Of a stretch of 64,000 nucleotides of DNA, positions 39,013 to 49,925 are shown piece after piece. The position numbers and the translations under genes were made by a program. The stretch comes from an uncultured Mycoplasmatota bacterium (GTDB taxonomy: Bacteria; Bacillota_I; Bacilli_A; RF39; UBA660), in assembly GCA_948434005.1 (NCBI GenBank), contig CAOJEH010000005.1, forward strand, positions 23,372 through 87,371. Direction: 5' to 3'. Below the pieces are notes generated by a model that had not been told where the DNA came from, ran no database searches, and worked only from the letters and a program-made list of their open reading frames with translations. Numbering within the stretch: the first letter of the stretch is position 1; each line of letters begins with the position of its first letter.

Positions 39013-39318
39013 ATGATTATTAATTATTTACCAATTATATCTATTATTTGCACTATAATTACCGTATTATTAACTTTTTTAACATATAAGGGAAATATGA
39101 ATAGTGATAATAAAGAGGAAATAGAGGAACGAGTAAAAAGAGATACAACTATATCTACAAAACTAGATTTAGTTATTACTGGTAACGTAGAATTGAAAAA
39201 TGAGATTAAAAATTTAAATAATAAATTTGATGATATTAGCCAACGTGTTGCAAGATGTGAAGAAAATACAAAACATGCACACGAAAGAATTGATAATTTA
39301 GAAAGAAGATTGAGTTAG
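39013..39318 (+). CDS. Membrane-anchored coiled-coil protein in the XhlA-like position of a lysis cassette
   Basis: An N-terminal TM segment (YLPIISIICTIITVLLTFLTY) is followed by a heptad-rich region (ELKNEIKNLNNKFDDISQRVARCEENTKHAHERIDNLERRL). It lies immediately upstream of the holin. Confidence 0.4.
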   Translation: MIINYLPIISIICTIITVLLTFLTYKGNMNSDNKEEIEERVKRDTTISTKLDLVITGNVELKNEIKNLNNKFDDISQRVARCEENTKHAHERIDNLERRLS

Positions 39319-39329
39319 AAGGTGATGTA

Positions 39330-39566
39330 ATGAAGAAGATAAAAAAGAAATTAAGTTCCATTTTTAAAAATGATATTGTAAGAAGAATTTTTTGGACATT
39401 TATAGAAGGGTTTTTAGGTGGATTTTATGTAACCTTATCTACAGCTTCAAATTATAATATAGCAATCTTTAAGAGTGCTTGTATTGGAGGTTTAGCAGCA
39501 GCAATTTCTGCTATAAAGAATTTACTTGTAAATTATATAAGAAAAAAGAAAGACGGAGTAATATGA
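39330..39566 (+). CDS. Phage-type holin
   Basis: 78 aa with a basic N-terminus, the motif VRRIFWTFIEGFLGGF typical of Firmicute phage holins, two hydrophobic segments and a charged C-terminus (RKKKDG). Its stop overlaps the next gene's start (ATGA). Confidence 0.7.
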   Translation: MKKIKKKLSSIFKNDIVRRIFWTFIEGFLGGFYVTLSTASNYNIAIFKSACIGGLAAAISAIKNLLVNYIRKKKDGVI

Positions 39567-40501
39567 GAAAGGGTCAGAAATCTAGTAATAAAGGAATTGA
39601 AAACTTTTTATGTCCTTTTACTGATATGTATATTAGCCAAGATAGTGGAGGTGCATATTCACATAAAGGAATAATGGCAAATGATGTTAGAGGAGTTCAA
39701 GCTGGAGTTAGATATCCTTATTATGCTCCATGTACCTGTAAATGTCTTAAAACTTATCCTATTACTGGACAAGTAATGTGGCAATCAGTAAATAAAGTTA
39801 GATTTGCTAATGGAAGAATAGACTACGCAACATTTATAACAGCTCACGATGATACTATGGATGTCAAAATTGGGCAAGTTATTAAACAGGGTAAACAAAT
39901 TGGAAATATGGGTATAAAAGGAAATGCAACAGGCGTACATTGCCATATTCAAGTATCACAATCTAGTGATACTTCTTGGATTAAAAATCAATATGGAAAT
40001 TATCGGTTTAATCACGAGTATGATTTGAATGATTGTTACTTTGTTGATGATACTAATATTATTAAAGGTAATGATAAAAAATGGAGAACCACTAAAGATA
40101 TAACAGTAAAGGAAGTTTCTGTTAATAATATAGAAATAGTTGATCAAATACTTCATGTTGGTTCAAAAGTTAAGTTTGATGGAATTTTCAAAGTAGATAT
40201 ATTGAAAAGCCCATTATCAACAAATTTATTTGGAAATATAAAATTGACCGGTGTTTCGTATGACGAATACTACCACGAATCAGCAAAAGCATATCATTGG
40301 ATACCATTAGATGATTTTACAGAAGTAGATAAATATGGTTCTTCTAAAAATCAGGATGATATTGTAGTGGGTGGGAAGAGTTATGTTATTAACAAAAATA
40401 TTTATACAGTAAAGAAAATAGATGTAAAAACAAATTCTGCTCAATTAGAATTAAATGGTCGAGATATTTGGGTATATAGTACCTATTTGTATGAGGTATG
40501 A
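39563..40501 (+). CDS. M23 (LytM-type) peptidoglycan endopeptidase with a C-terminal SH3-like wall-binding region (endolysin-like)
   Basis: ATG 39563 follows GACGGAG and overlaps the holin stop. M23 metal motifs are present (YSHKGIMANDV; GNMGIKGNATGVHCHIQV, equivalent to G.tG.HLH). There is no signal peptide. The ORF-track start at 39479 lies inside the holin gene. Confidence 0.7.
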   Translation: MRKGQKSSNKGIENFLCPFTDMYISQDSGGAYSHKGIMANDVRGVQAGVRYPYYAPCTCKCLKTYPITGQVMWQSVNKVRFANGRIDYATFITAHDDTMDVKIGQVIKQGKQIGNMGIKGNATGVHCHIQVSQSSDTSWIKNQYGNYRFNHEYDLNDCYFVDDTNIIKGNDKKWRTTKDITVKEVSVNNIEIVDQILHVGSKVKFDGIFKVDILKSPLSTNLFGNIKLTGVSYDEYYHESAKAYHWIPLDDFTEVDKYGSSKNQDDIVVGGKSYVINKNIYTVKKIDVKTNSAQLELNGRDIWVYSTYLYEV

Positions 40502-40830: not shown

Positions 40831-41394
40831 ATGAATGAATATATAACAGATGCCTTTACAAGAGAAGGCAATAATACAAATTTAGAGGTAAATAATTTAA
40901 ATGTAGGATGTATAACATCTACAAATAATAAGTTTGAACTAGATAGTAATGGTAATCTTACTGTACAAGGTTTAACTGTTCAAAATCAAAATATTGATAC
41001 TATCACTATGAGAGACTTTATATATCCAGTAGGATCTATTTATATGTCTGTAAATGGGACTAATCCAAGTACATTATTTGGTGGCACATGGGAGCAATTG
41101 AAGGATAGGTTTTTATTAGGTTGCGGTGATACATATCAAAATGGCACAACAGGAGGAGAGGCAACACATAAATTAACAACAGAAGAATTAGCATCACATA
41201 GTCATAGTTACTATAGGTATTCAACAACTACAGCAGCTACTGCATCTGGTCAAGGTCAAATATTAGATGCCAATAAAAGATGGTCTGCAGCAGCTGGTAG
41301 TAATACAAATTTAATATTTAATTCTGGTGGGGACCAACCACATAATAATATGCCTCCATATTTAGTAGTTTATATGTGGAAAAGAGTTAGTTAG
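40831..41394 (+). CDS. Phage tail-fibre / tail-collar-domain-like protein
   Basis: YPVGSIYMS...PSTLFGGTWEQLKDRFLLGCG...GTTGGEATHKLTTEELASHSHS...GGDQPHNNMPPYLVVYMWKR matches the collar/receptor-binding tip pattern of Firmicute phage tail fibres. The N-terminus is fibre-like (NLEVNNLNVG...LTVQGLTV). Confidence 0.65.
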   Translation: MNEYITDAFTREGNNTNLEVNNLNVGCITSTNNKFELDSNGNLTVQGLTVQNQNIDTITMRDFIYPVGSIYMSVNGTNPSTLFGGTWEQLKDRFLLGCGDTYQNGTTGGEATHKLTTEELASHSHSYYRYSTTTAATASGQGQILDANKRWSAAAGSNTNLIFNSGGDQPHNNMPPYLVVYMWKRVS

Positions 41395-41409: not shown

Positions 41410-44400
41410 ATGAAAGAAATTGAATTAATAGAAAAAAGAAAACCTCGTGAAAAACATTTTTTACAAGAAGATGGTACTATAATAGCTAAAGTTTATAATG
41501 AAGATATTCATTATTTAAAAGATGGTGAATATAAAGAAATTGATAATACTCTAGTAAATAAAGATGGAATAATAAGTAATAAGAGTAATGATTATAAAGT
41601 TGAGTTTAAAGAAAACTTTAAAGAATCATTAATGAAAATGACTAAAGGTAATCACTATATTGACTTTAAAATAAGAGAATCAAAATTAGATAATTTAAGT
41701 ACAGAGAAAAGAAAACTATCTAAAAAAACAAAGAATATTACTTATAATAATATTACCGATGATATTAAAATCGAATATCAAACACTATCAGATAAAGTTA
41801 AAGAAACTATAGTTTTACAAAATGCAAATTATTCAGAATTAAGTTTTGAATTAGATACTAATTTAAGTTTGACAGAAGAAAATGGAGAAATTATATCAAA
41901 AGATATAAATGGGAATATAATTTTTAGAATTGAGAAACCATTTATGATAGATTCAAATGATATTAGGAATGATGATATTCATTACTCATTAAAAAGTTTT
42001 GATGATGGATATATTTTGACCCTAATTTTAGATGATGAATGGCTTAATTCTGAAGAAAGGGTATTCCCAGTATATGTTGATCCAACTATTACTAATAATA
42101 GTCAAAGTATAAGTTTATATGATACGTATATTTATCCAGGTGATACTAATGATACAAGAAGCAATAAACCTTATTTAAAAGCAGGTGTAGAAAAGGTTAA
42201 TGGAGTGGATAGAATTAATAGAACACTAATTAAATTTGATTTACCTGAGATAGGGACTGGGAGTGAAATAATATATGCTGAATTGGCTTTTATTGGATAT
42301 CCATCAACAATTAATTCATCAAATGTAAACTCAAAACTTGTAACTGTTCATAAAGTTACAAAAGATTGGAATGAGGATACTGCTAATTGGAATGAGATGA
42401 ATGATAGCTATGAAAAAAAGGTAGAAGCAATATTTGAGTGTTGGAGAAGCCAGATTTCTGGATCAGTTATTACACCTGTATTAGTAGGTGGTGGAATCAC
42501 TAATTTAGTAAAAAAATGGTATAAGGATACTCCTAATTATGGTCTTCTTATAAAATCTGTTGATGAAATATATACTGATTCGGACTATCCAGCATTCTTT
42601 TCTAAAAATAACACAATGTCAGAAAATCCTAAACCATGTTTTACTATATGTTATAGAAATCAAAATGGAATTGAACCTTATTTAAATTATAATGAGCAGT
42701 CTTTTTCTTCTGGAAAAACTTGTATTAATACATATAATGGAAATTTAACAGGTATTTTTGATATAGGTAAAACTAATGGGGGAAAACTTCCTATAAATTT
42801 ACAGCTAATATATAATACTAATGATGTAGTATTAAATAAGAATATTGGTTTTGGAAAAGGCTATAAATTAAATTATTATCAAACTATTAAAAAAGTTGAT
42901 ATATATGATGCAGAGTATTTAGAGTATGAAGATGAGGATGGGACACTTCATTATTTTCAAAAAAAACAAAAGTATTTTCCAATTGCTGATTGTGAAGATA
43001 ACATATATTTAGATGAGGATGGATTAGGTTTAGAAATAACAGAATTCAATAATAATTTAAATATGACAGATAAAAATGGTAATAAAATGATATTTGAAAG
43101 GAATGATGAAGTTTATTATCTTACAAAAATAATTGATGCTGATGAAAATTGTGTTATCATAGCTTATAGTAATAATAAAATCTCAAAAATCAAAGATCAA
43201 AGTAATCAAGAAATAAGCATTATATATAATAGCAATACAATTAATATAGTAACGCCAGAAGATGAAATTGTAGTAAATTATAGTGATAATAAACCAATAT
43301 CAATTCAAAGTATTAATGGAATACTATATATTGAATATAATGAAAATAATATTATTTCTAGTATTGAGGATATAACGAAAATAAAAATGAAATATTTTTA
43401 CTATCCAAAAAAACCATATAAAATTAAAAGTGTTCAACAATATGGTGTTAATAATACTATAGGGAAAACAATAGATTTGGAATATGGTTTTAAATCCACT
43501 ACCTTAAAAGATGATAAGAATAGATGCGAAACACTTATATTTAATGATGATGGAAATTTACTTTCTAAAAATAATTTGGAGGAAATTGATAGTATTGATA
43601 ATGCATATTCATTATCATTAGAATATGGTAAGTATGATTTTGGTATTACTAACAAAATAATATCTAGTTCAATTCCAACAAAATATATAAAGAATTATTT
43701 AAAAAATACAAGTTTTGAAACTGATGAAACAAATTTTTTAGTAGATGGTGAAATGTTAACTAAAAGCTTTTCAAGTGATATTGCTTATAGTGGAAAACGC
43801 TCGTTAAAGGTTGAATCTCAACATGCAGGTCAATCATTAACCCAATTAATATCTGTAAAAAAAGGAGAATATTATACATTTAGTGGTTATTTTAAAAATA
43901 GTGATCCATTTGTAATCTCTTTAAGTTATATTGATGAAAATGGTTCAAAGGTATTCAGTGAACAAACAGTAGAAACTTCTGATAAATTTGCTAGAAATGA
44001 TGTTACTATTTATTATAGTGATACTGCAACAAGTGATTTAAAAATATCTATAGAATTTATTTCTACTAATTTAACTTATATTGATGATATTCAACTTGAA
44101 GAGGGTGAAGTTGCAAATGCCTATAATCTAATAGAAAATTCTGATTTTTCGAGTGGTATTGCAGATTGGGAATTAACAGCAATAAATGAAAAAGGTGAAT
44201 ATGTATCTCCTAATCAATTTTTTGAATTAGTAAAATTTAATAATAATAAAAACACAGCATTAAAAGTTAAAATGGATCCTTCATACACTACTCGTTTTGA
44301 AAAAAAGTTTCCTATAAGTGGAGAATATGGAGATTTATATACGGTTTCTTTTTGGTATAAAAATGAGGGTGTAGAGGAATGCAGACAATATTCGGGTAAT

Positions 44401-47400
44401 AAGGTTGCAATTTATTACGAAGAAGGTGAGAATCAGGAGGGTCACTGTCCATTTTCAAGTCTGAATTTTGATAGAAATGAAAAATGGCAATTTTATAGTT
44501 ATAGAGTTAGATCACTGGAAGATTTTAAATCAATTAGATTAGTTTTTTCACAAAATACTCAAGCTAATGATTTTTACATAACAAATATTTCATTTTACAG
44601 AGAACCTACGAGTGGAGATTTTCAATATGATGAAAATGGTAATCTAGTTTCTATCACAAATCAATCAAAAGAAAAATATACTTTCAATTATGATAAGAAA
44701 AATCAATTGATTGAAACAAAAAGTGCATCAGGTGAGAGTATAAAATATGAATATGATAATGAGAAGCAGGATAGAGTATTAAGTTCAATGTCGGAAACAG
44801 GTATTGTTACTAAAATAGAATATGATAATTTTGGTAATGAAATAATGAAGTCTATAAAGAAATGCTATGTAAACGAGATTAAAAATGGAAATTATAGAAT
44901 TAGATGTAAAGGAACAAATAAATATTTAAAAGCAGAATTAAACTATGTTATGGCAGAAAAAGACTTGTGCAGTAATACTATTTGGGTAATTGAAAAGGAA
45001 AATGAAAAATTGATAATTAAATATTCAATTAATCCATCTTACTCAATTACATATGATAATGATAATATTTCACTATTAGAAAGTAATATTAATAATTCCT
45101 TTAGTTTTGAAGTAAATAGTGATGGAAGTATTTATATTTTTGTTGATAATGGAGAAGAAAGAAAATATTTAAAAGAAAGCGAAGGTAATATTATATTAGC
45201 TAGTACTAATGATAAAAATGAATCATGTAAGTTTTATATAGAGGACATTAGTGATATATTTTTAGAATCTAAAATTACATATACTAATGATGGTAAATAT
45301 ATATCAAGTATAACTAATGATAATAATCATACGACATTATATGAAACTAATCCAACAAAGGGACTGGTTACTTCAATTACCAATCCCAATGGTGTAAAAA
45401 CAGAGTATGATTATAATACTAAAAATCAAGTTTCATCAATAACTACAAAAGAAAAATCTGTTAACTATTCGTATAATACAGAAAATCTATTGTCAAGTAT
45501 TAGTTTAGGAAATAAAACTTATAATATTGAATATGATGATTTTCAAAATATTAAATCTATGAAAATAGGTAATTCTATAAAATTATTTGAAAAAATTTAT
45601 GAACTACAAAATGGAAATTTACTTAAAAATGTTTATGGTAATGATGATATTGTAATGTATGAATATGATAGATTTGATAGAAAAACAAAAATTATTAAAC
45701 AAAATGATACTTATGAAATAAAGTATGATAATAATGGAAGAGTTGCTAAAATCTTATCAAATGATAGAATTATTAAAAATAATTTTGATATTAGCGGAAG
45801 ACTATTTGAACATACAAATAATAATTTTAAAGTTAATTATACTTATGATTCTGAAAATAATATTATTAAAAAAATATACAAGTTAAATAATCGAAGAAAT
45901 ATTATAGAAAATACTATTAGTAATGAAAAATTGATAGAAAAATTTTCTGTAAACAATGATTTCGTTAATTATCAGTATGATGATTTAACTAGACTTATCG
46001 GAAAGACTATTAATAATAATTATAATATTTCATATAGATATAAAAATTATGGAAAAAAATCGACAATGTTAGTAGAGAGTATAAAAAATGGAGACGACGA
46101 ATATTCATATGAATATGATAGTCTTGATAATATAACACATATATATCATAATAATGAAATATTAAAAAAGTATGATTACAATGATTATAATGAATTAGTC
46201 TCAGAAGAGGATTATTTTGAAAATCAAAAAATCATATATAGTTATGATTTGTATGGAAATATTTTATCAAAAGTTAGAAAGACTTTAATTGATAATGAGA
46301 TTACATCTACAAATAGCTACGAATATGGTAATAATAATTGGAAAGATTTATTAACTAAGTATGATAATAAAGAAATAACATATGATGAAATAGGGAATCC
46401 TTTATCAATAGGAGAATTTATAAATCTTTCATGGATGAATGGTAAAGAATTAGTATCATATACAGATTCATCTAAACAATTGAATATTTCTTATAAATAT
46501 AATGAAGATGGCCTTAGGACAAGCAAAACAATAAATGGTATTAAAACTAACTACTATTTAGAAGGATCACAAATAGTTTTAGAAGAAAAAGATAATAATA
46601 TTAAACTATTTGTTAGAGACGAAACTGGGTTGATTGGTTTTAAATATAATAATAAAATGTATTATTATGTTAAAAATATTCAAGATGATATAATTGGTAT
46701 TTTAGATACAAATTATGAACAAATAGTAAAGTATTGTTATGATTCTTGGGGAAATATAACAAATATTATAGATAATAGTGATGAAAATATAGGATTAGAA
46801 AATCCGTATAGATATCGTTCTTATTATTATGATAATGAGACTGAATTATACTATTTAAATATGAGGTATTATAATTCGAAATGGGGAAGATTTATTAATG
46901 CAGATGAGATAGTAGGTGCAAGTGATACTCATACAGGTTATAATTTGTTTACATATGTTGGAAATAATCCAGTTAATAATATAGACGTTTCTGGAAGATT
47001 TTTAGGAAAATTAACAAAAACAATAAAAAAAGTTGCAAAAAAGGTTATAAACAAGATAACTAATGCAGTGTCAAAACCTAAAAAAACAAAATCATCTAGT
47101 AGTAAAAATGCATCCACTTCAATTAAAAAGACTTCATCTACAAAATCCAAATCTTCAAGTAAAAAAAGTGGTACTTTTGTAGCTGAATTTGGTGCTGGTT
47201 TTGGTGGATCAGTAAACATAGACTCTGTTGGTATTGGCGCATATCAAGATAAAACATTTGGATATAGTTTTCGAGATGGAGGATATTCAAATATCTCTGG
47301 TAATGGTTCAATTGGAATTGGTATTATAGGTGGTGGATTTAGCTATACACATGAATATCCATTTGATAAGGATGATTCAGGCCCATTACATAGCTCTTCA

Positions 47401-47556
47401 AGTCTTAATATCATTGATTGTGATAGAACAGAGCATGGTTGGAACTTTAAATTTTTAATATTTAGTTTTAATGATGATGGTAGTGGATTTGTTGGTATAG
47501 ATGCGGATATACATATAGCTCTTGGTGGCCATATCAAAATTGGTTTTGAATGGTAA
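41410..47556 (+). CDS. Giant DNRLRE-domain / RHS (YD-repeat) polymorphic toxin with an unassigned C-terminal domain
   Basis: 2048 aa with no N-terminal signal peptide. A DNRLRE-type domain starts around aa 224 (VYVDP...LIKFDL...VHKVTKDWNEDTANWN). Two carbohydrate-binding-like modules lie at about nt 43690-44610. There are many YD repeats (YDxxGN/YxYD). The RHS core is NPYRYRSYYYDNETELYYLNMRYYNSKWGRFINAD ... GNNPVNNIDVSGR, followed by a 185-aa tail. Confidence 0.85.
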   Translation: MKEIELIEKRKPREKHFLQEDGTIIAKVYNEDIHYLKDGEYKEIDNTLVNKDGIISNKSNDYKVEFKENFKESLMKMTKGNHYIDFKIRESKLDNLSTEKRKLSKKTKNITYNNITDDIKIEYQTLSDKVKETIVLQNANYSELSFELDTNLSLTEENGEIISKDINGNIIFRIEKPFMIDSNDIRNDDIHYSLKSFDDGYILTLILDDEWLNSEERVFPVYVDPTITNNSQSISLYDTYIYPGDTNDTRSNKPYLKAGVEKVNGVDRINRTLIKFDLPEIGTGSEIIYAELAFIGYPSTINSSNVNSKLVTVHKVTKDWNEDTANWNEMNDSYEKKVEAIFECWRSQISGSVITPVLVGGGITNLVKKWYKDTPNYGLLIKSVDEIYTDSDYPAFFSKNNTMSENPKPCFTICYRNQNGIEPYLNYNEQSFSSGKTCINTYNGNLTGIFDIGKTNGGKLPINLQLIYNTNDVVLNKNIGFGKGYKLNYYQTIKKVDIYDAEYLEYEDEDGTLHYFQKKQKYFPIADCEDNIYLDEDGLGLEITEFNNNLNMTDKNGNKMIFERNDEVYYLTKIIDADENCVIIAYSNNKISKIKDQSNQEISIIYNSNTINIVTPEDEIVVNYSDNKPISIQSINGILYIEYNENNIISSIEDITKIKMKYFYYPKKPYKIKSVQQYGVNNTIGKTIDLEYGFKSTTLKDDKNRCETLIFNDDGNLLSKNNLEEIDSIDNAYSLSLEYGKYDFGITNKIISSSIPTKYIKNYLKNTSFETDETNFLVDGEMLTKSFSSDIAYSGKRSLKVESQHAGQSLTQLISVKKGEYYTFSGYFKNSDPFVISLSYIDENGSKVFSEQTVETSDKFARNDVTIYYSDTATSDLKISIEFISTNLTYIDDIQLEEGEVANAYNLIENSDFSSGIADWELTAINEKGEYVSPNQFFELVKFNNNKNTALKVKMDPSYTTRFEKKFPISGEYGDLYTVSFWYKNEGVEECRQYSGNKVAIYYEEGENQEGHCPFSSLNFDRNEKWQFYSYRVRSLEDFKSIRLVFSQNTQANDFYITNISFYREPTSGDFQYDENGNLVSITNQSKEKYTFNYDKKNQLIETKSASGESIKYEYDNEKQDRVLSSMSETGIVTKIEYDNFGNEIMKSIKKCYVNEIKNGNYRIRCKGTNKYLKAELNYVMAEKDLCSNTIWVIEKENEKLIIKYSINPSYSITYDNDNISLLESNINNSFSFEVNSDGSIYIFVDNGEERKYLKESEGNIILASTNDKNESCKFYIEDISDIFLESKITYTNDGKYISSITNDNNHTTLYETNPTKGLVTSITNPNGVKTEYDYNTKNQVSSITTKEKSVNYSYNTENLLSSISLGNKTYNIEYDDFQNIKSMKIGNSIKLFEKIYELQNGNLLKNVYGNDDIVMYEYDRFDRKTKIIKQNDTYEIKYDNNGRVAKILSNDRIIKNNFDISGRLFEHTNNNFKVNYTYDSENNIIKKIYKLNNRRNIIENTISNEKLIEKFSVNNDFVNYQYDDLTRLIGKTINNNYNISYRYKNYGKKSTMLVESIKNGDDEYSYEYDSLDNITHIYHNNEILKKYDYNDYNELVSEEDYFENQKIIYSYDLYGNILSKVRKTLIDNEITSTNSYEYGNNNWKDLLTKYDNKEITYDEIGNPLSIGEFINLSWMNGKELVSYTDSSKQLNISYKYNEDGLRTSKTINGIKTNYYLEGSQIVLEEKDNNIKLFVRDETGLIGFKYNNKMYYYVKNIQDDIIGILDTNYEQIVKYCYDSWGNITNIIDNSDENIGLENPYRYRSYYYDNETELYYLNMRYYNSKWGRFINADEIVGASDTHTGYNLFTYVGNNPVNNIDVSGRFLGKLTKTIKKVAKKVINKITNAVSKPKKTKSSSSKNASTSIKKTSSTKSKSSSKKSGTFVAEFGAGFGGSVNIDSVGIGAYQDKTFGYSFRDGGYSNISGNGSIGIGIIGGGFSYTHEYPFDKDDSGPLHSSSSLNIIDCDRTEHGWNFKFLIFSFNDDGSGFVGIDADIHIALGGHIKIGFEW

Positions 47557-47566
47557 AGTAATAAAA

Positions 47567-47593
47567 GGGGGGAATTTTATAATCCTCCTTTTT
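47567..47593. terminator. Bidirectional terminator between the RHS gene and the convergent membrane-protein gene
   Basis: ggggggaatt / aatcctcc hairpin (one mismatch, one G-U pair), with an A-run before and a T-run after. Confidence 0.6.
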
Positions 47594-47635
47594 ATGCAAT
47601 GAATTTATACTACATTATATAAAATATTTATTATT

Positions 47636-47956
47636 TTATTCTTTTTTTTCTACGTTAACAAAATATTGATATTTTGTTTTTTTTCCATAATTATTTTCAA
47701 TAACAAAAGTTATTCTCTTTTCTCCGGGGGTTGTTGTATCAAGTTTTTTCGGTTTTGATATTACCTTTCCATACTTTATATTTTTTATATAAGATATATC
47801 TGTTCTATCTTCATATTGAGTAGCTTCCAAATTATTAAGTGATACAATTGGTCGTGTATGAAAAATATTAAGAAAATATATCCAAAATGTTATATATCCG
47901 ATTATACCTGAAACTGAGGATAGTATACCAAAACTAATTAAAACTTTTCTTTTCAA
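47636..47956 (-). CDS. Signal-anchored small membrane protein with a beta-rich ectodomain
   Basis: The best start is TTG 47956 (MKRKVLISFGILSSVSGIIGYITFWIYFL), preceded by GAGGTGAT. The ORF-track ATG at 47995 has no RBS. The C-terminal roughly 70 aa (TTPGEKRITFVIENNYGKKTKYQYFVNV) looks like a small beta-sandwich. Confidence 0.55.
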   Translation of the reverse strand: MKRKVLISFGILSSVSGIIGYITFWIYFLNIFHTRPIVSLNNLEATQYEDRTDISYIKNIKYGKVISKPKKLDTTTPGEKRITFVIENNYGKKTKYQYFVNVEKKE

Positions 47957-48430
47957 GAAAATCACCTCTTTTAATAATCTTGTTTCTAATATCATATCAT
48001 ATTATTTAACAAATATGAAGTTCTGCTAAATAAAATTAGAAGTGAAACTTAGCTGATTTTGAGTATTTATTTTTTCTATCTAAAATCCACTCTGCAGGAT
48101 AATTATATTTTTACATAATAATAAGTTTAAAGTAGTTATAAGTATTTTTCTATTTTTTATAAGATTATCAAGTTTCTTGATTGATACCAATATTTTTCTA
48201 TATTCTATATTGTGATATTTTTTATTGTAACTTATTTATCGTTAATAATTGAAAAATTTAAATTATCATTATAAACTATATTTATATTATTAGTTGATAA
48301 TGATTTATAATAAAGAGGTTATATTAATAGTAAAATAAGTTAAAATGTTAAGTGCAGTTGACAAATTTCCAACTACAATTGGTAGAGTGCAACTATAATA
48401 AAGTATATAATTTTTTTGAGGTGAGAGAAT

Positions 48431-49054
48431 ATGGATATTGGTGAAAGACTATTAGATTTAAGAAAATCTAAGAACTTATCACAAGAAGAGGTAGCTTATA
48501 AACTTAGTGTATCTCGTCAAACTATTTCAAAGTGGGAGACTAATCAAAGTAGTCCTGACTTTGATAAGATATTACCATTATGTGATTTATATGGTGTATC
48601 TACAGATTATTTGTTAATAGGAAATATGAAAAATGATAAAGAAAGTGATATTACTAAACAAGATATAAGAGAATTAAGAGCTAAGGGTATAGGAATTTCT
48701 GTACTTATGTATATTTTATCTGTTGCATGGATAACTATTGCAATACCATTTTTGGATATGGATCCTATTTTAGCGTCATCTATATTTTTAGTTATTTGTG
48801 GAATAGCTACTTATAAGATTGTTTATACTTGTATTAGATATAAGATAAAAAAAGAAGTAAAAGAAAATAAAAATAATAAAGTTGCAAAACAAATAAATGA
48901 GATTATATCATTAATAGTAGTCATAACATATTTTATAGTTAGTTTTACTACAGGATCATGGCATATTACCTGGATACTATTTATAGTTTGCGGACTATGT
49001 GAAGCGGTAGTAAAATTAGTATTTATGCTAAAGGAGGATAATAATGAAAAATAA
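48431..49054 (+). CDS. XRE-family HTH regulator fused to membrane-spanning segments
   Basis: The N-terminal HTH (LSQEEVAYKLSVSRQTISKWETNQSSPD) is followed by three or four TM helices. Confidence 0.75.
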   Translation: MDIGERLLDLRKSKNLSQEEVAYKLSVSRQTISKWETNQSSPDFDKILPLCDLYGVSTDYLLIGNMKNDKESDITKQDIRELRAKGIGISVLMYILSVAWITIAIPFLDMDPILASSIFLVICGIATYKIVYTCIRYKIKKEVKENKNNKVAKQINEIISLIVVITYFIVSFTTGSWHITWILFIVCGLCEAVVKLVFMLKEDNNEK

Positions 49055-49925
49055 GCCACTAATTATAACATTAATATGTTTATTAGTAATTACCTCTATA
49101 GGTTTAATTATATTTATGATATCAGTTATGAATAAAAAGATAAATTTTAGAGGCTTTTCTTATACTTATAAAGTTAGTAATAAATTAGTAATGGATAAAA
49201 ACTATAATAATAAATATGATAGTATAGAAATTAATTCTAATGATGCAGATATTTATATAAAAGATACTGATGCAGATAATATTAGAGTTGTTATTTATGG
49301 TGATAAAGAAAGATTAAATGTTAAAGATGATTCAAAATTAAAAATAGAGTTTGATGCAACTAAATGTATTGGTTTTTGTTTTAATAAAAAAATAAATAAA
49401 ATAGAAGTATATTTACCTAGTAATTATAATAAAGATTTAATTATTAATAATAACTATGGTGATATAAAAATAGGTAATACTTCTGCGAATATTATAGTTA
49501 ATGAAGATTGTGGAGATGTAGAAGTATCATCTGCTAAAAAAGTTAATGTAAAAAATAAGTATGGAGATATTAATATAGGTAAGGCTACTAATATAAATAT
49601 TAAAGCTGATTGTGGAGATGTAGATATAGGAGAAGCTAATTATCTTAATGTAAGTAATAAATATGGAGATGTTACTATAGATAAAGTTAACAATTATGTA
49701 AATATTATAGATAATTGTGGAGATATAGAAATTGATAATTTAAATATTACAAAAAATTCTAAAATAGAAGATAATTATGGTGATATAGAAATAGGTAATA
49801 CTAATGAAATTTACATTGATGCTAAAACTTCTTTAGGAGATGTAGATATAAATAAAAATTATCGTAAATCTGATGTTGTTTTAGATATTAAAAATGATTG
49901 CGGAGATATAGAAGTAGATAATTAA
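49044..49925 (+). CDS. DUF4097-family beta-repeat protein (putative adhesin-like)
   Basis: An N-terminal TM anchor is followed by alternating YGD[IV]xI and CGD[IV][ED][IV] beta-strand repeats, characteristic of DUF4097. It overlaps the upstream regulator gene by 11 nt. Confidence 0.7.
   Translation: MKNKPLIITLICLLVITSIGLIIFMISVMNKKINFRGFSYTYKVSNKLVMDKNYNNKYDSIEINSNDADIYIKDTDADNIRVVIYGDKERLNVKDDSKLKIEFDATKCIGFCFNKKINKIEVYLPSNYNKDLIINNNYGDIKIGNTSANIIVNEDCGDVEVSSAKKVNVKNKYGDINIGKATNINIKADCGDVDIGEANYLNVSNKYGDVTIDKVNNYVNIIDNCGDIEIDNLNITKNSKIEDNYGDIEIGNTNEIYIDAKTSLGDVDINKNYRKSDVVLDIKNDCGDIEVDN

Follow-up and report, generated by a model that had tools for sequence, protein, structure and literature searches.

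The 64,000-nucleotide stretch of contig CAOJEH010000005.1 analysed here (the window), from an uncultured Mycoplasmatota bacterium, encodes a giant rearrangement hotspot (RHS) protein whose last 185 residues form a tail beyond the RHS core. To judge by its sequence relatives, the module that ends this tail is a conserved, rare and previously unannotated family, not the chance end of an open reading frame (ORF). In the reading that we favour, and that we rate as an even call, a Gram-positive polymorphic toxin of the RHS kind carries the tail as its payload: a membrane-inserting, barrel-like beta toxin, preceded by a cationic helix and a linker that would dock on the envelope. The whole analysis is computational. 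The RHS gene and its parts are:

41410–47556, plus strand: RHS/YD-repeat giant protein of 2048 residues (ORF and domain searches)
46960–46998, plus strand: RHS core end GNNPVNNIDVSGR, residues 1851–1863 (TIGR03696 and alignment to 8h8a)
46999–47070, plus strand: predicted cationic amphipathic helix FLGKLTKTIKKVAKKVINKITNAV, residues 1864–1887, net charge +7 (AlphaFold2 (AF2) single-sequence model, hydrophobic moment)
47071–47169, plus strand: Lys/Ser-rich disordered linker, residues 1888–1920 (composition, AF2)
47170–47553, plus strand: all-beta module, residues 1921–2048, net charge −10, 19% Gly (phmmer, alignments, AF2)

The 2048-residue protein carries a DNRLRE domain (residues 237–409), a CBM_4_9 domain (761–881), YD/RHS repeats (PF05593 at E 1.6e-21, TIGR01643 and a partial match to the RHS_core model NF041261 in the Pfam and NCBIfam searches) and an RHS-associated core at residues 1777–1862, where TIGR03696 matches over model positions 1–75 of 76 with 63 bits against a cutoff of 32.5. 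In the solved Rhs chain 8h8a the terminal '…NPIQWIDPTG' aligns with 'NNPVNNIDVSG' of the RHS protein and 'FIQQDPISIA' with 'FINADEIVGA'; the Asp of 'IDVSG' and that of 'NADE' pair with the D of 'IDPTG' and of 'QQDP'. Because the terminal residues of 8h8a align there, and with the TIGR03696 match ending at residue 1862, the first-pass annotation was right to place GNNPVNNIDVSGR at the DPxGL equivalent, that is, at the position of the PxxxxDPxGL autoproteolysis motif. It had put a 185-residue tail after the core end (…NNIDVSGR) at 46999–47556, and both these coordinates and the strings that it quoted are exact, codon 1864 starting at 46999. The motif is degenerate in this protein (DVSGR) and likewise in its relatives (DxxG); from its position we infer that the RHS core cleaves itself after …IDVSGR.

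The tail module and its relatives

The 185-residue tail had no match in Pfam or NCBIfam at E≤0.1, none in PHROGs at E≤0.01 and nothing significant among PDB sequences, where the best E was 1.5. The profile of its family likewise found nothing among PDB sequences, and each family member searched against Pfam gave nothing at a meaningful level. The earlier description of an unassigned domain devoid of enzymatic toxin motifs is therefore borne out, as the searches of Pfam, NCBIfam, PHROGs and PDB sequences matched it to no family of enzymatic toxins. A deaminase or peptidase reading of the string 'THEY' together with a Cys was tried and rejected: residue 61 is His in 10 of the 15 relatives, residue 62 is Glu in 6 and the Cys is present in 9, with no profile support.

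Relatives are few. A word-indexed search of 5.8 billion proteins recovered one when started from the single module and three with the profile, and an exhaustive phmmer search of 1.84 billion representatives gave 17 matches at E≤1e-3, 15 of which were kept as real relatives; the other two, P0005 and P0017, were discarded as long repeat proteins with many weak stretches. The 15 share the motif FVAExGxGxG…YQDxTxG…YSNISG…HxYPF…FxGIDxxLHxGxGGHIKxGW, and near-invariant residues are E1926, G1928, G1930, G1932, Y1945, D1947, T1949, G1974, F2027, H2035, G2039, H2041, K2043 and G2045. With one exception the relatives either stand after an RHS core end (…YNLYAYxxNNPIxxxDxxG) or are orphan cassettes that start just past such an end, among them P0009 (locus L008), which lies in an array with an RHS fragment and with Imm70 and Imm53 genes. 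Two proteins share the overall architecture of the window's RHS protein: P0010 (2073 residues, L010), which is 44–52% identical to it in the body and 37% in the module, and a 2052-residue protein of L025, 71–77% identical in the body and 62% in the module. Identical copies of the 2048-residue protein itself occur on 12 contigs, which come from different samples.

Among 185,579 species-representative genomes the wider family was found at one locus and the subfamily of the window at none, while scans of JGI metagenomes gave no locus for the first scan and then three. The tail was not found in IMG/VR viral contigs, and is therefore not taken to be phage-borne. The family thus appears to be confined to uncultured, AT-rich bacteria of Gram-positive type that are known solely from metagenome assemblies. 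The single species-representative genome with the family, L018 (CAYNHT010000004.1), is labelled 'uncultured Muribaculaceae' (Bacteroidota); L008 and L009, which carry the same P0009 cassette, have Clostridia-type genes (RsgI_M, the FeoAB arrangement) and AT-rich RHS arrays, so that the label or binning of L018 looks doubtful. Apparent frameshifts occur in L001 (1–320), within the A-rich Lys linker between RHS junction and module, and in L026 (8337–14551), where the RHS gene falls into two ORFs; the shifts may reflect homopolymer sequencing errors, or real pseudogenes or phase variation.

The part of the tail that precedes the module is of two kinds. The first-pass annotation had described a 58-residue low-complexity stretch, which holds for residues 1888–1920, a true Lys/Ser linker (14 Ser and 11 Lys in 34 residues, net charge about +11), and fails for the first 24 residues, which are confidently predicted as an amphipathic helix. 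In the single-sequence AF2 model of the whole tail, informative only for this helix (predicted local distance difference test, pLDDT, 41 overall), the helix spans tail residues 2–24 at a pLDDT of about 87–94, and its hydrophobic moment of 0.66 compares with 0.22±0.11 in shuffled sequences and was reached by none of 5000. Once autoproteolysis had occurred, the helix would be the new N-terminus. Related RHS genes (L011, L012) carry a similar helix and Lys/Ser linker ahead of an unrelated Tox-WTIP tail, and we therefore regard helix and linker as a generic element ahead of the toxins in this RHS clade, one that lies outside the new domain. Judged by gene arrangement, such exchange of tails between related cores, together with the orphan cassettes, is classic polymorphic-toxin behaviour.

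Predicted fold and partner genes

With the 15-sequence alignment, AF2 predicts the module as an all-beta, up-and-down meander (pLDDT 83.8, predicted template modelling score 0.73; the five models range from 71 to 84). In module numbering, to which 1920 is added for the full-length protein, the strands are 2–17, 20–33, 37–50, 53–62, 88–95, 98–101 and 106–127, the long ones measuring 10–22 residues, with a 25-residue loop at 63–87 and no helix. The strands have two different faces. The hydrophobic face (40 positions) is 76% aliphatic or aromatic and 4% charged and contains, across the family, not a single identity-conserved column, while the polar face (42 positions) is 22% Gly, 24% charged, 38% Ser/Thr/Asn/Gln/His and 15% hydrophobic and holds all 13 near-invariant columns (E6, G8, G10, G12, Y25, D27, T29, G54, F107, H115, H121, K123 and G125). 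Dyad moments reach z 2.6–3.2 in four of eight strands and 2.3 in the last. The alternating hydrophobic pattern reported at first pass is thus real and, by the strand column statistics, holds across the family. A hydrophobic face that varies, backed by a Gly/polar face that is conserved, inverts the arrangement of a soluble protein and is found in integral membrane beta-barrels; with this inside-out amphipathic pattern, the modelled module looks built to sit in a membrane.

The connections between strands add an asymmetry. If all of them are hairpins, one side would consist of four tight turns with 7.8 residues and 0.4 charges per sequence, and the other of both termini and the long loop with 33 residues and 8.6 charges, an arrangement that would suit insertion from one side. 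Although non-significant, the Foldseek matches come mostly from OmpX, PagL, PagP, NspA, designed transmembrane barrels and 'OMP beta-barrel' proteins of phages. Like the small outer-membrane protein (OMP) barrels and the designed ones, the module would have antiparallel strands with a strict dyad pattern and a variable hydrophobic face opposite a conserved Gly/polar one, and in the window subfamily it ends on a terminal aromatic residue (…GFEW). Unlike these barrels, it has no Pfam OMP match and Foldseek E values of at least 0.02, sits in a host with Gram-positive features and, if all connections are hairpins, would carry its long loop on the side of the termini.

The Gly residues do not form the glycine zipper to which the first-pass annotation had likened them. 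A glycine zipper consists of GxxxG repeats within hydrophobic helices, and the comparison is wrong here because GxxxG is not above chance (2 occurrences, with 4.3±1.7 in shuffles) and no helical membrane segment is present in the module, whose maximum 19-residue Kyte–Doolittle hydropathy is 0.95. The wider pattern [GAS]xxx[GAS]xxx[GAS] occurs three times against 4.4 in shuffles and GxG seven times against 4.3 expected (p about 0.1), neither the tail nor any family member matches a Gly-zipper Pfam family, and the AF2 module is all beta. The tail shares with glycine-zipper toxins (TelE, CdzC/D and some pore formers of type VI secretion systems, T6SS) its richness in Gly, the want of an enzymatic motif and a presumed membrane target, and differs from them in that the Gly residues of the module follow an i,i+2 spacing on beta strands. 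As far as is known, TspA, TelE and the pore formers of colicin type are helical.

To characterize the genes next to the tail, hidden Markov models (HMMs) of the tail and of three partner families were run over all fetched loci. In nine of the ten loci with readable downstream sequence the neighbour is a small membrane protein, and these proteins fall into three unrelated families. RDD-family (PF06271) proteins with three transmembrane (TM) segments and about 121–126 residues overlap the stop of the toxin gene in four independent loci (L008/L009/L018/L019, L010, L015 and L016; mutual identity 42–69%). A 2-TM family of about 200 residues, with a soluble domain of about 120, accounts for three loci and follows the tail in L001 and L011–L013 (convergent) and in L020 and L021 (co-directional), and a 1-TM family of about 105 residues, which accounts for two, is convergent to it in the window and in L025–L027. 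The partner genes in question, with the element that separates the RHS gene of the window from its neighbour, are:

L008, 6816–7181: RDD 3-TM gene (PF06271)
L010, 12207–13049: RDD 3-TM gene, tandem duplication (PF06271)
L015, 5960–6340: RDD 3-TM gene (PF06271)
L016, 1564–1929: RDD 3-TM gene (PF06271)
Window, 47558–47597, no strand assigned: A-run, 15-bp hairpin and U-run between the convergent genes (fold −15.5 kcal/mol, z −3.6, 0 of 200 shuffles)
Window, 47636–47995, minus strand: 1-TM small membrane protein, candidate immunity protein (ORF, HMM, recurrence in L025)

The longest ORF at 47636–47995 has 119 residues, and gene callers start it at 47956 (106 residues). Its product has a short Lys/Arg-rich N-terminus (KRK), one TM segment and then a tail of about 70 residues. 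In L025–L027 a 57% identical homolog lies 18 nt from the stop of the 2052-residue RHS gene, which has the same tail subfamily, at a different genomic location; this recurrence makes the product the candidate immunity protein of the window locus. A tblastn search found no RDD or 2-TM homolog in the window, and the 119-residue protein is unrelated to the 2-TM family. The hairpin at 47558–47597, at which a simple terminator scan made no call, is plausibly a bidirectional intrinsic terminator. For the RDD proteins, their position suggests that they act as immunity proteins; a role of this kind was not found in the literature searched, and in a 2025 survey the function of this family is still given as unknown (PMC12419801). 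Members of the window's 1-TM family also occur away from any RHS tail, in a cluster of small genes at L022 6694–10281 (also in L023 and L024) that resembles an orphan-immunity island: it contains two copies and a fragment of that family, a 359-residue multi-TM protein with repeated PH-like segments, a DUF2691 protein (a gene found after the Tox-WTIP tails of L011 and L012), a 171-residue secreted or anchored protein and other small membrane proteins.

Proposed mechanism and alternative readings

A polymorphic-toxin payload is the only reading of the tail that accommodates comfortably its position after the core, its cassette behaviour and the recurrence of adjacent small genes. Since the partners belong to three unrelated membrane-protein families, one of which (RDD) is almost wholly membrane-embedded, the encounter with the toxin probably takes place in or at the membrane, not in the cytoplasm, and these neighbours together with the inside-out beta pattern are what leads us to favour a membrane-inserting, barrel-like toxin. 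The proposed sequence of events, from cleavage and membrane insertion through barrel closure and depolarisation to immunity, would run as follows. The RHS core would cleave itself after …IDVSGR, and the helix and linker of the freed 185-residue fragment (about +18 together) would dock on a target cell at its anionic envelope or membrane surface. The acidic 128-residue beta module, which would stay unfolded or shielded in the cocoon until release, would then form a small, barrel-like beta structure in the cytoplasmic membrane by insertion of its long amphipathic strands, with the variable hydrophobic face to the lipid and the Gly/polar face (E1926, Y1945, D1947, T1949, H2035, H2041, K2043) forming the interior. 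Insertion would dissipate an ion gradient or disturb a process in the membrane, and the producer would be protected by the adjacent small integral membrane protein, which may be the 1-TM product of 47636–47995 in the window and a 3-TM RDD or a 2-TM protein in other lineages.

A number of observations speak against a membrane-inserting barrel. The alignment behind the AF2 model is shallow, with only 15 sequences, and DSSP assigns seven elements, with 106–127 as one strand, so that the strand number is seven or eight; the in-phase alternation through G119–G120 fits one long kinked strand and a 3-residue turn alike. AlphaFold modelling, as proposed at first pass, yielded a predicted fold, yet Foldseek gave no significant match to a known one (PDB E 0.19–0.3 with template modelling scores of 0.15–0.40; BFVD best E 0.02 with a score of 0.26; no score above 0.42 overall). 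The two faces were assigned partly by the hydrophobicity pattern itself, so that the conservation contrast alone is independent. The module is strongly acidic (−10), and the most divergent member, P0011, is without H2035, H2041 and K2043. The exception to the RHS context, P0003 (L014 121–1029, on a contig of 1088 bp), has a lipoprotein signal and Big_2 followed by the module without its first strand. The candidate immunity gene of the window is convergent with the RHS gene instead of co-transcribed with it, and in L017, the sole exception among the neighbours, the adjacent protein is a soluble one of 216 residues with no TM segment. Natural eight-stranded barrels are usually not conductive, and we know of no monomeric beta-barrel toxin of cytoplasmic membranes. 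As to P0003, it could be a second delivery context or an assembly chimera.

We hold only tentatively, and consider rather doubtful, a more specific version of the favoured reading: that the module is a monomeric OMP-like beta-barrel which, delivered unfolded from the RHS cocoon, inserts itself into the cytoplasmic membrane of competing Gram-positive bacteria, that it would be the first interbacterial membrane toxin of beta-barrel type, and that small RDD proteins would serve as in-membrane immunity in the sister lineages.

The alternative that survives best, though we think it unlikely, is a soluble, beta-rich module that acts as an enzyme or binds a ligand beyond the cytoplasm, on the membrane surface or in the cell wall. 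Envelope-acting toxins of Gram-positive bacteria with membrane-tethered immunity exist, TelC/TipC being an example, and targets here could include lipid II, undecaprenyl carriers, teichoic acids or phospholipid head groups, with the Glu/Asp/Tyr/His/His/Lys cluster as the site and the membrane-anchored neighbours neutralising the toxin at the outer face. The near-invariant polar residues E6, Y25, D27, T29, H115, H121 and K123 lie on one face and would cluster, the 2-TM family has its soluble domain of about 120 residues and the 1-TM partner its tail of about 70 residues (which could lie on either side of the membrane), and a few soluble barrels (TTM/CYTH, Diels-Alderases) are returned by Foldseek at scores as weak as those of the membrane barrels. 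Such an enzyme is hard to reconcile with the RDD partners, which at about 121 residues and nearly all membrane-embedded offer little surface to bind it, or with 40 hydrophobic positions on strands of 10–22 residues, which would have to be buried in a module that has neither a second layer nor helices. No catalytic family or motif matches, and P0011 lacks the His/His/Lys set.

Most tails of RHS and other polymorphic toxins are cytoplasmic enzymes (Zhang et al. 2012, PMC3482391), and the conserved His, His, Lys and Glu of the module might be read in that light, as a nuclease, NADase or similar toxin of undescribed fold whose helix and linker serve only for translocation. A cationic helix before the toxin domain has been proposed to aid import in ABP systems, whose toxin domains are cationic (PMC13460014) while the module is acidic. 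Immunity to cytoplasmic toxins is provided by soluble cytoplasmic proteins, whereas nine of ten neighbours here are membrane proteins from three unrelated families, and no enzymatic profile matches; we judge this reading highly improbable.

There remains a very slight chance that the tail is not a toxin at all but a structural, anchoring or adhesive element or a plug of the cocoon, with unrelated membrane-protein neighbours: in the three full-length orthologs tail and body diverged roughly in step, as in vertical descent (62% against 71–77%, 37% against 44–52%), P0003 bears the module on a surface lipoprotein and the neighbour in the window is convergent, but this sits poorly with a tail at the exact position of an RHS toxin, after the core end, with orphan cassettes that bring their own partner gene in RHS/immunity arrays, with three partner families that recur at overlapping or very close stops in independent loci, with homologs of the window's 1-TM partner clustered among other immunity-like genes and, for an outer-membrane anchor, with a host that has FemAB and Spo0A and no outer-membrane sign in the window, where such an anchor would make no sense. 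An outer-membrane anchor in a diderm Firmicute was considered separately and rejected, given that the tail begins past the presumed cleavage site and behaves as an orphan cassette, and that the window has Gram-positive markers.

Delivery, host and comparison with known systems

Release and targeting of the putative membrane-inserting toxin may depend on the genes upstream of the RHS gene:

39013–39318, plus strand: protein with TM segment and coiled coil, XhlA-like (weak XhlA match, E 0.0097)
39330–39566, plus strand: holin-like protein of 78 residues (weak phrog_443 match, E 0.003)
39563–40501, plus strand: M23 peptidase, its start overlapping the stop of the holin-like gene (domain match)
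40831–41394, plus strand: Gp10_C tail-fibre-like protein, directly upstream of the RHS gene (Pfam)

A Gp10_C gene also adjoins the RHS gene in L010 and L025, and in L025 an M23 gene lies upstream as well. No hydrophobic stretch or signal peptide was found at the N-terminus of the RHS protein, where Pfam and NCBIfam report only DNRLRE and CBM_4_9, and no PAAR or LXG was found in the protein. With lysis-cassette-like and Gp10_C genes upstream of an RHS protein that has no signal, the arrangement suggests release that depends on lysis or a holin, with the fibre-like protein as a possible partner for targeting. Within the YD-repeat region, window positions 44800–45400 (about residues 1130–1330) hold an insertion ('NGNYRIRCKGTNKYLKA…WVIEKENEKL…') that by eye resembles a ricin-type beta-trefoil lectin and has no Pfam support; taken with DNRLRE and CBM_4_9, this lectin-like insertion suggests a carbohydrate-binding surface on the cocoon.

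The host markers in the window (Spo0A, FemAB, a LiaG-like protein and lysis genes of Gram-positive type) point to a Gram-positive-type member of the Bacillota, and no outer-membrane marker was found within the 64 kb. Just past the RHS island, 48431–49925 encodes an HTH_3 regulator, whose C-terminal part is a membrane region, and a 'toastrack' protein of DUF4097/LiaG-like type. Such a pair is characteristic of envelope-stress modules, and it flanks the island in every copy (L002–L006). The window begins with the genes of elongation factors EF-G and EF-Tu (56–2852) and holds the S10 ribosomal-protein operon from 50619 onwards. In many bacteria these two blocks are adjacent; here about 48 kb separates them, with FemAB, enolase, RNase R, serine hydroxymethyltransferase, P-type ATPases, CdaA, Spo0A and the RHS island in between.

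The first-pass annotation had proposed a new membrane-depolarising payload in an RHS cocoon. The neighbours at nine of ten loci and the inside-out beta pattern support its membrane or envelope site of action, while the idea itself is not new because of Tse5; the novelty would lie in the beta architecture and in the partner proteins. Tse5, an RhsP1-type T6SS effector of Pseudomonas aeruginosa, has an RHS cocoon from which autoproteolysis releases Tse5-CT, a fragment that inserts into membranes and depolarises them; D1141A blocks this release, and the immunity protein Tsi5 is a small integral membrane protein with two predicted TM segments (PMC9637101, PMC10684867). The window locus shares with it the RHS cocoon, a presumed C-terminal fragment with no enzymatic signature and a candidate small membrane-protein partner. 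It differs in that Tse5-CT is predicted to be helical, likely an alpha-pore-forming toxin (PMC9637101), whereas the window module is all beta in the AF2 model, and in that Tse5 is delivered by T6SS PAAR/VgrG in Gram-negative bacteria, whereas the window RHS protein, with neither PAAR nor signal, is encoded beside tail-fibre-like and lysis-like genes in a genome of Gram-positive type. The tail had no significant match among PDB chain sequences that would indicate homology to Tse5, the presence of full-length Tse5 in that set not having been checked. What looks new is the beta architecture, along with the RDD-type partners.

Two other groups of toxins invite comparison. The ionophore CdiA-CT of contact-dependent growth inhibition (CDI) dissipates the membrane potential, has a polymorphic CdiI immunity protein and consists of an entry region and a membrane-active domain (PMC11630599). 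The tail described here is likewise a two-part polymorphic-toxin tail, but on an RHS and not a CdiA scaffold and with a predicted beta module in place of the predicted five-helix bundles, which need specific inner-membrane receptors (PMC11630599). In the ABP toxins of Gram-positive bacteria (AbpT/AbpP/AbpI), proteolysis frees a fragment in which a cationic amphipathic helix comes first and the toxin domain second; binding to target membranes has been proposed for the helix (PMC13460014). The order of cationic amphipathic helix and then toxin domain would be the same in the window; the ABP toxins, however, are cationic cytoplasmic enzymes with cytoplasmic immunity and a separate serine protease, in contrast to the acidic module, the membrane partners and the presumed RHS autoproteolysis of the system studied here.

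Also comparable are the WapA-type YD/RHS toxins of Bacillota, for which PMC12704120 and Koskiniemi et al. 2013 (via PMC13460014) describe variable C-terminal toxins and adjacent immunity genes. The window protein has the same Gram-positive YD-repeat polymorphic-toxin architecture, and unlike WapA it has no signal peptide and carries DNRLRE and CBM_4_9 domains at its N-terminus. WapA itself is exported with a signal peptide, and its known tails are nucleases.

If the favoured reading is true, a toxin tail of long amphipathic beta strands would be a new structural solution, given that Tse5 and the CDI ionophores are predicted to be helical, and an RHS cocoon would be able to chaperone a hydrophobic cargo of beta-barrel type. 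The association would also provide a first functional handle on RDD-family membrane proteins and would turn two unannotated families of small membrane proteins into candidate immunity factors. For the bacteria that carry it, the family may contribute to competition between strains in the habitat of the host.

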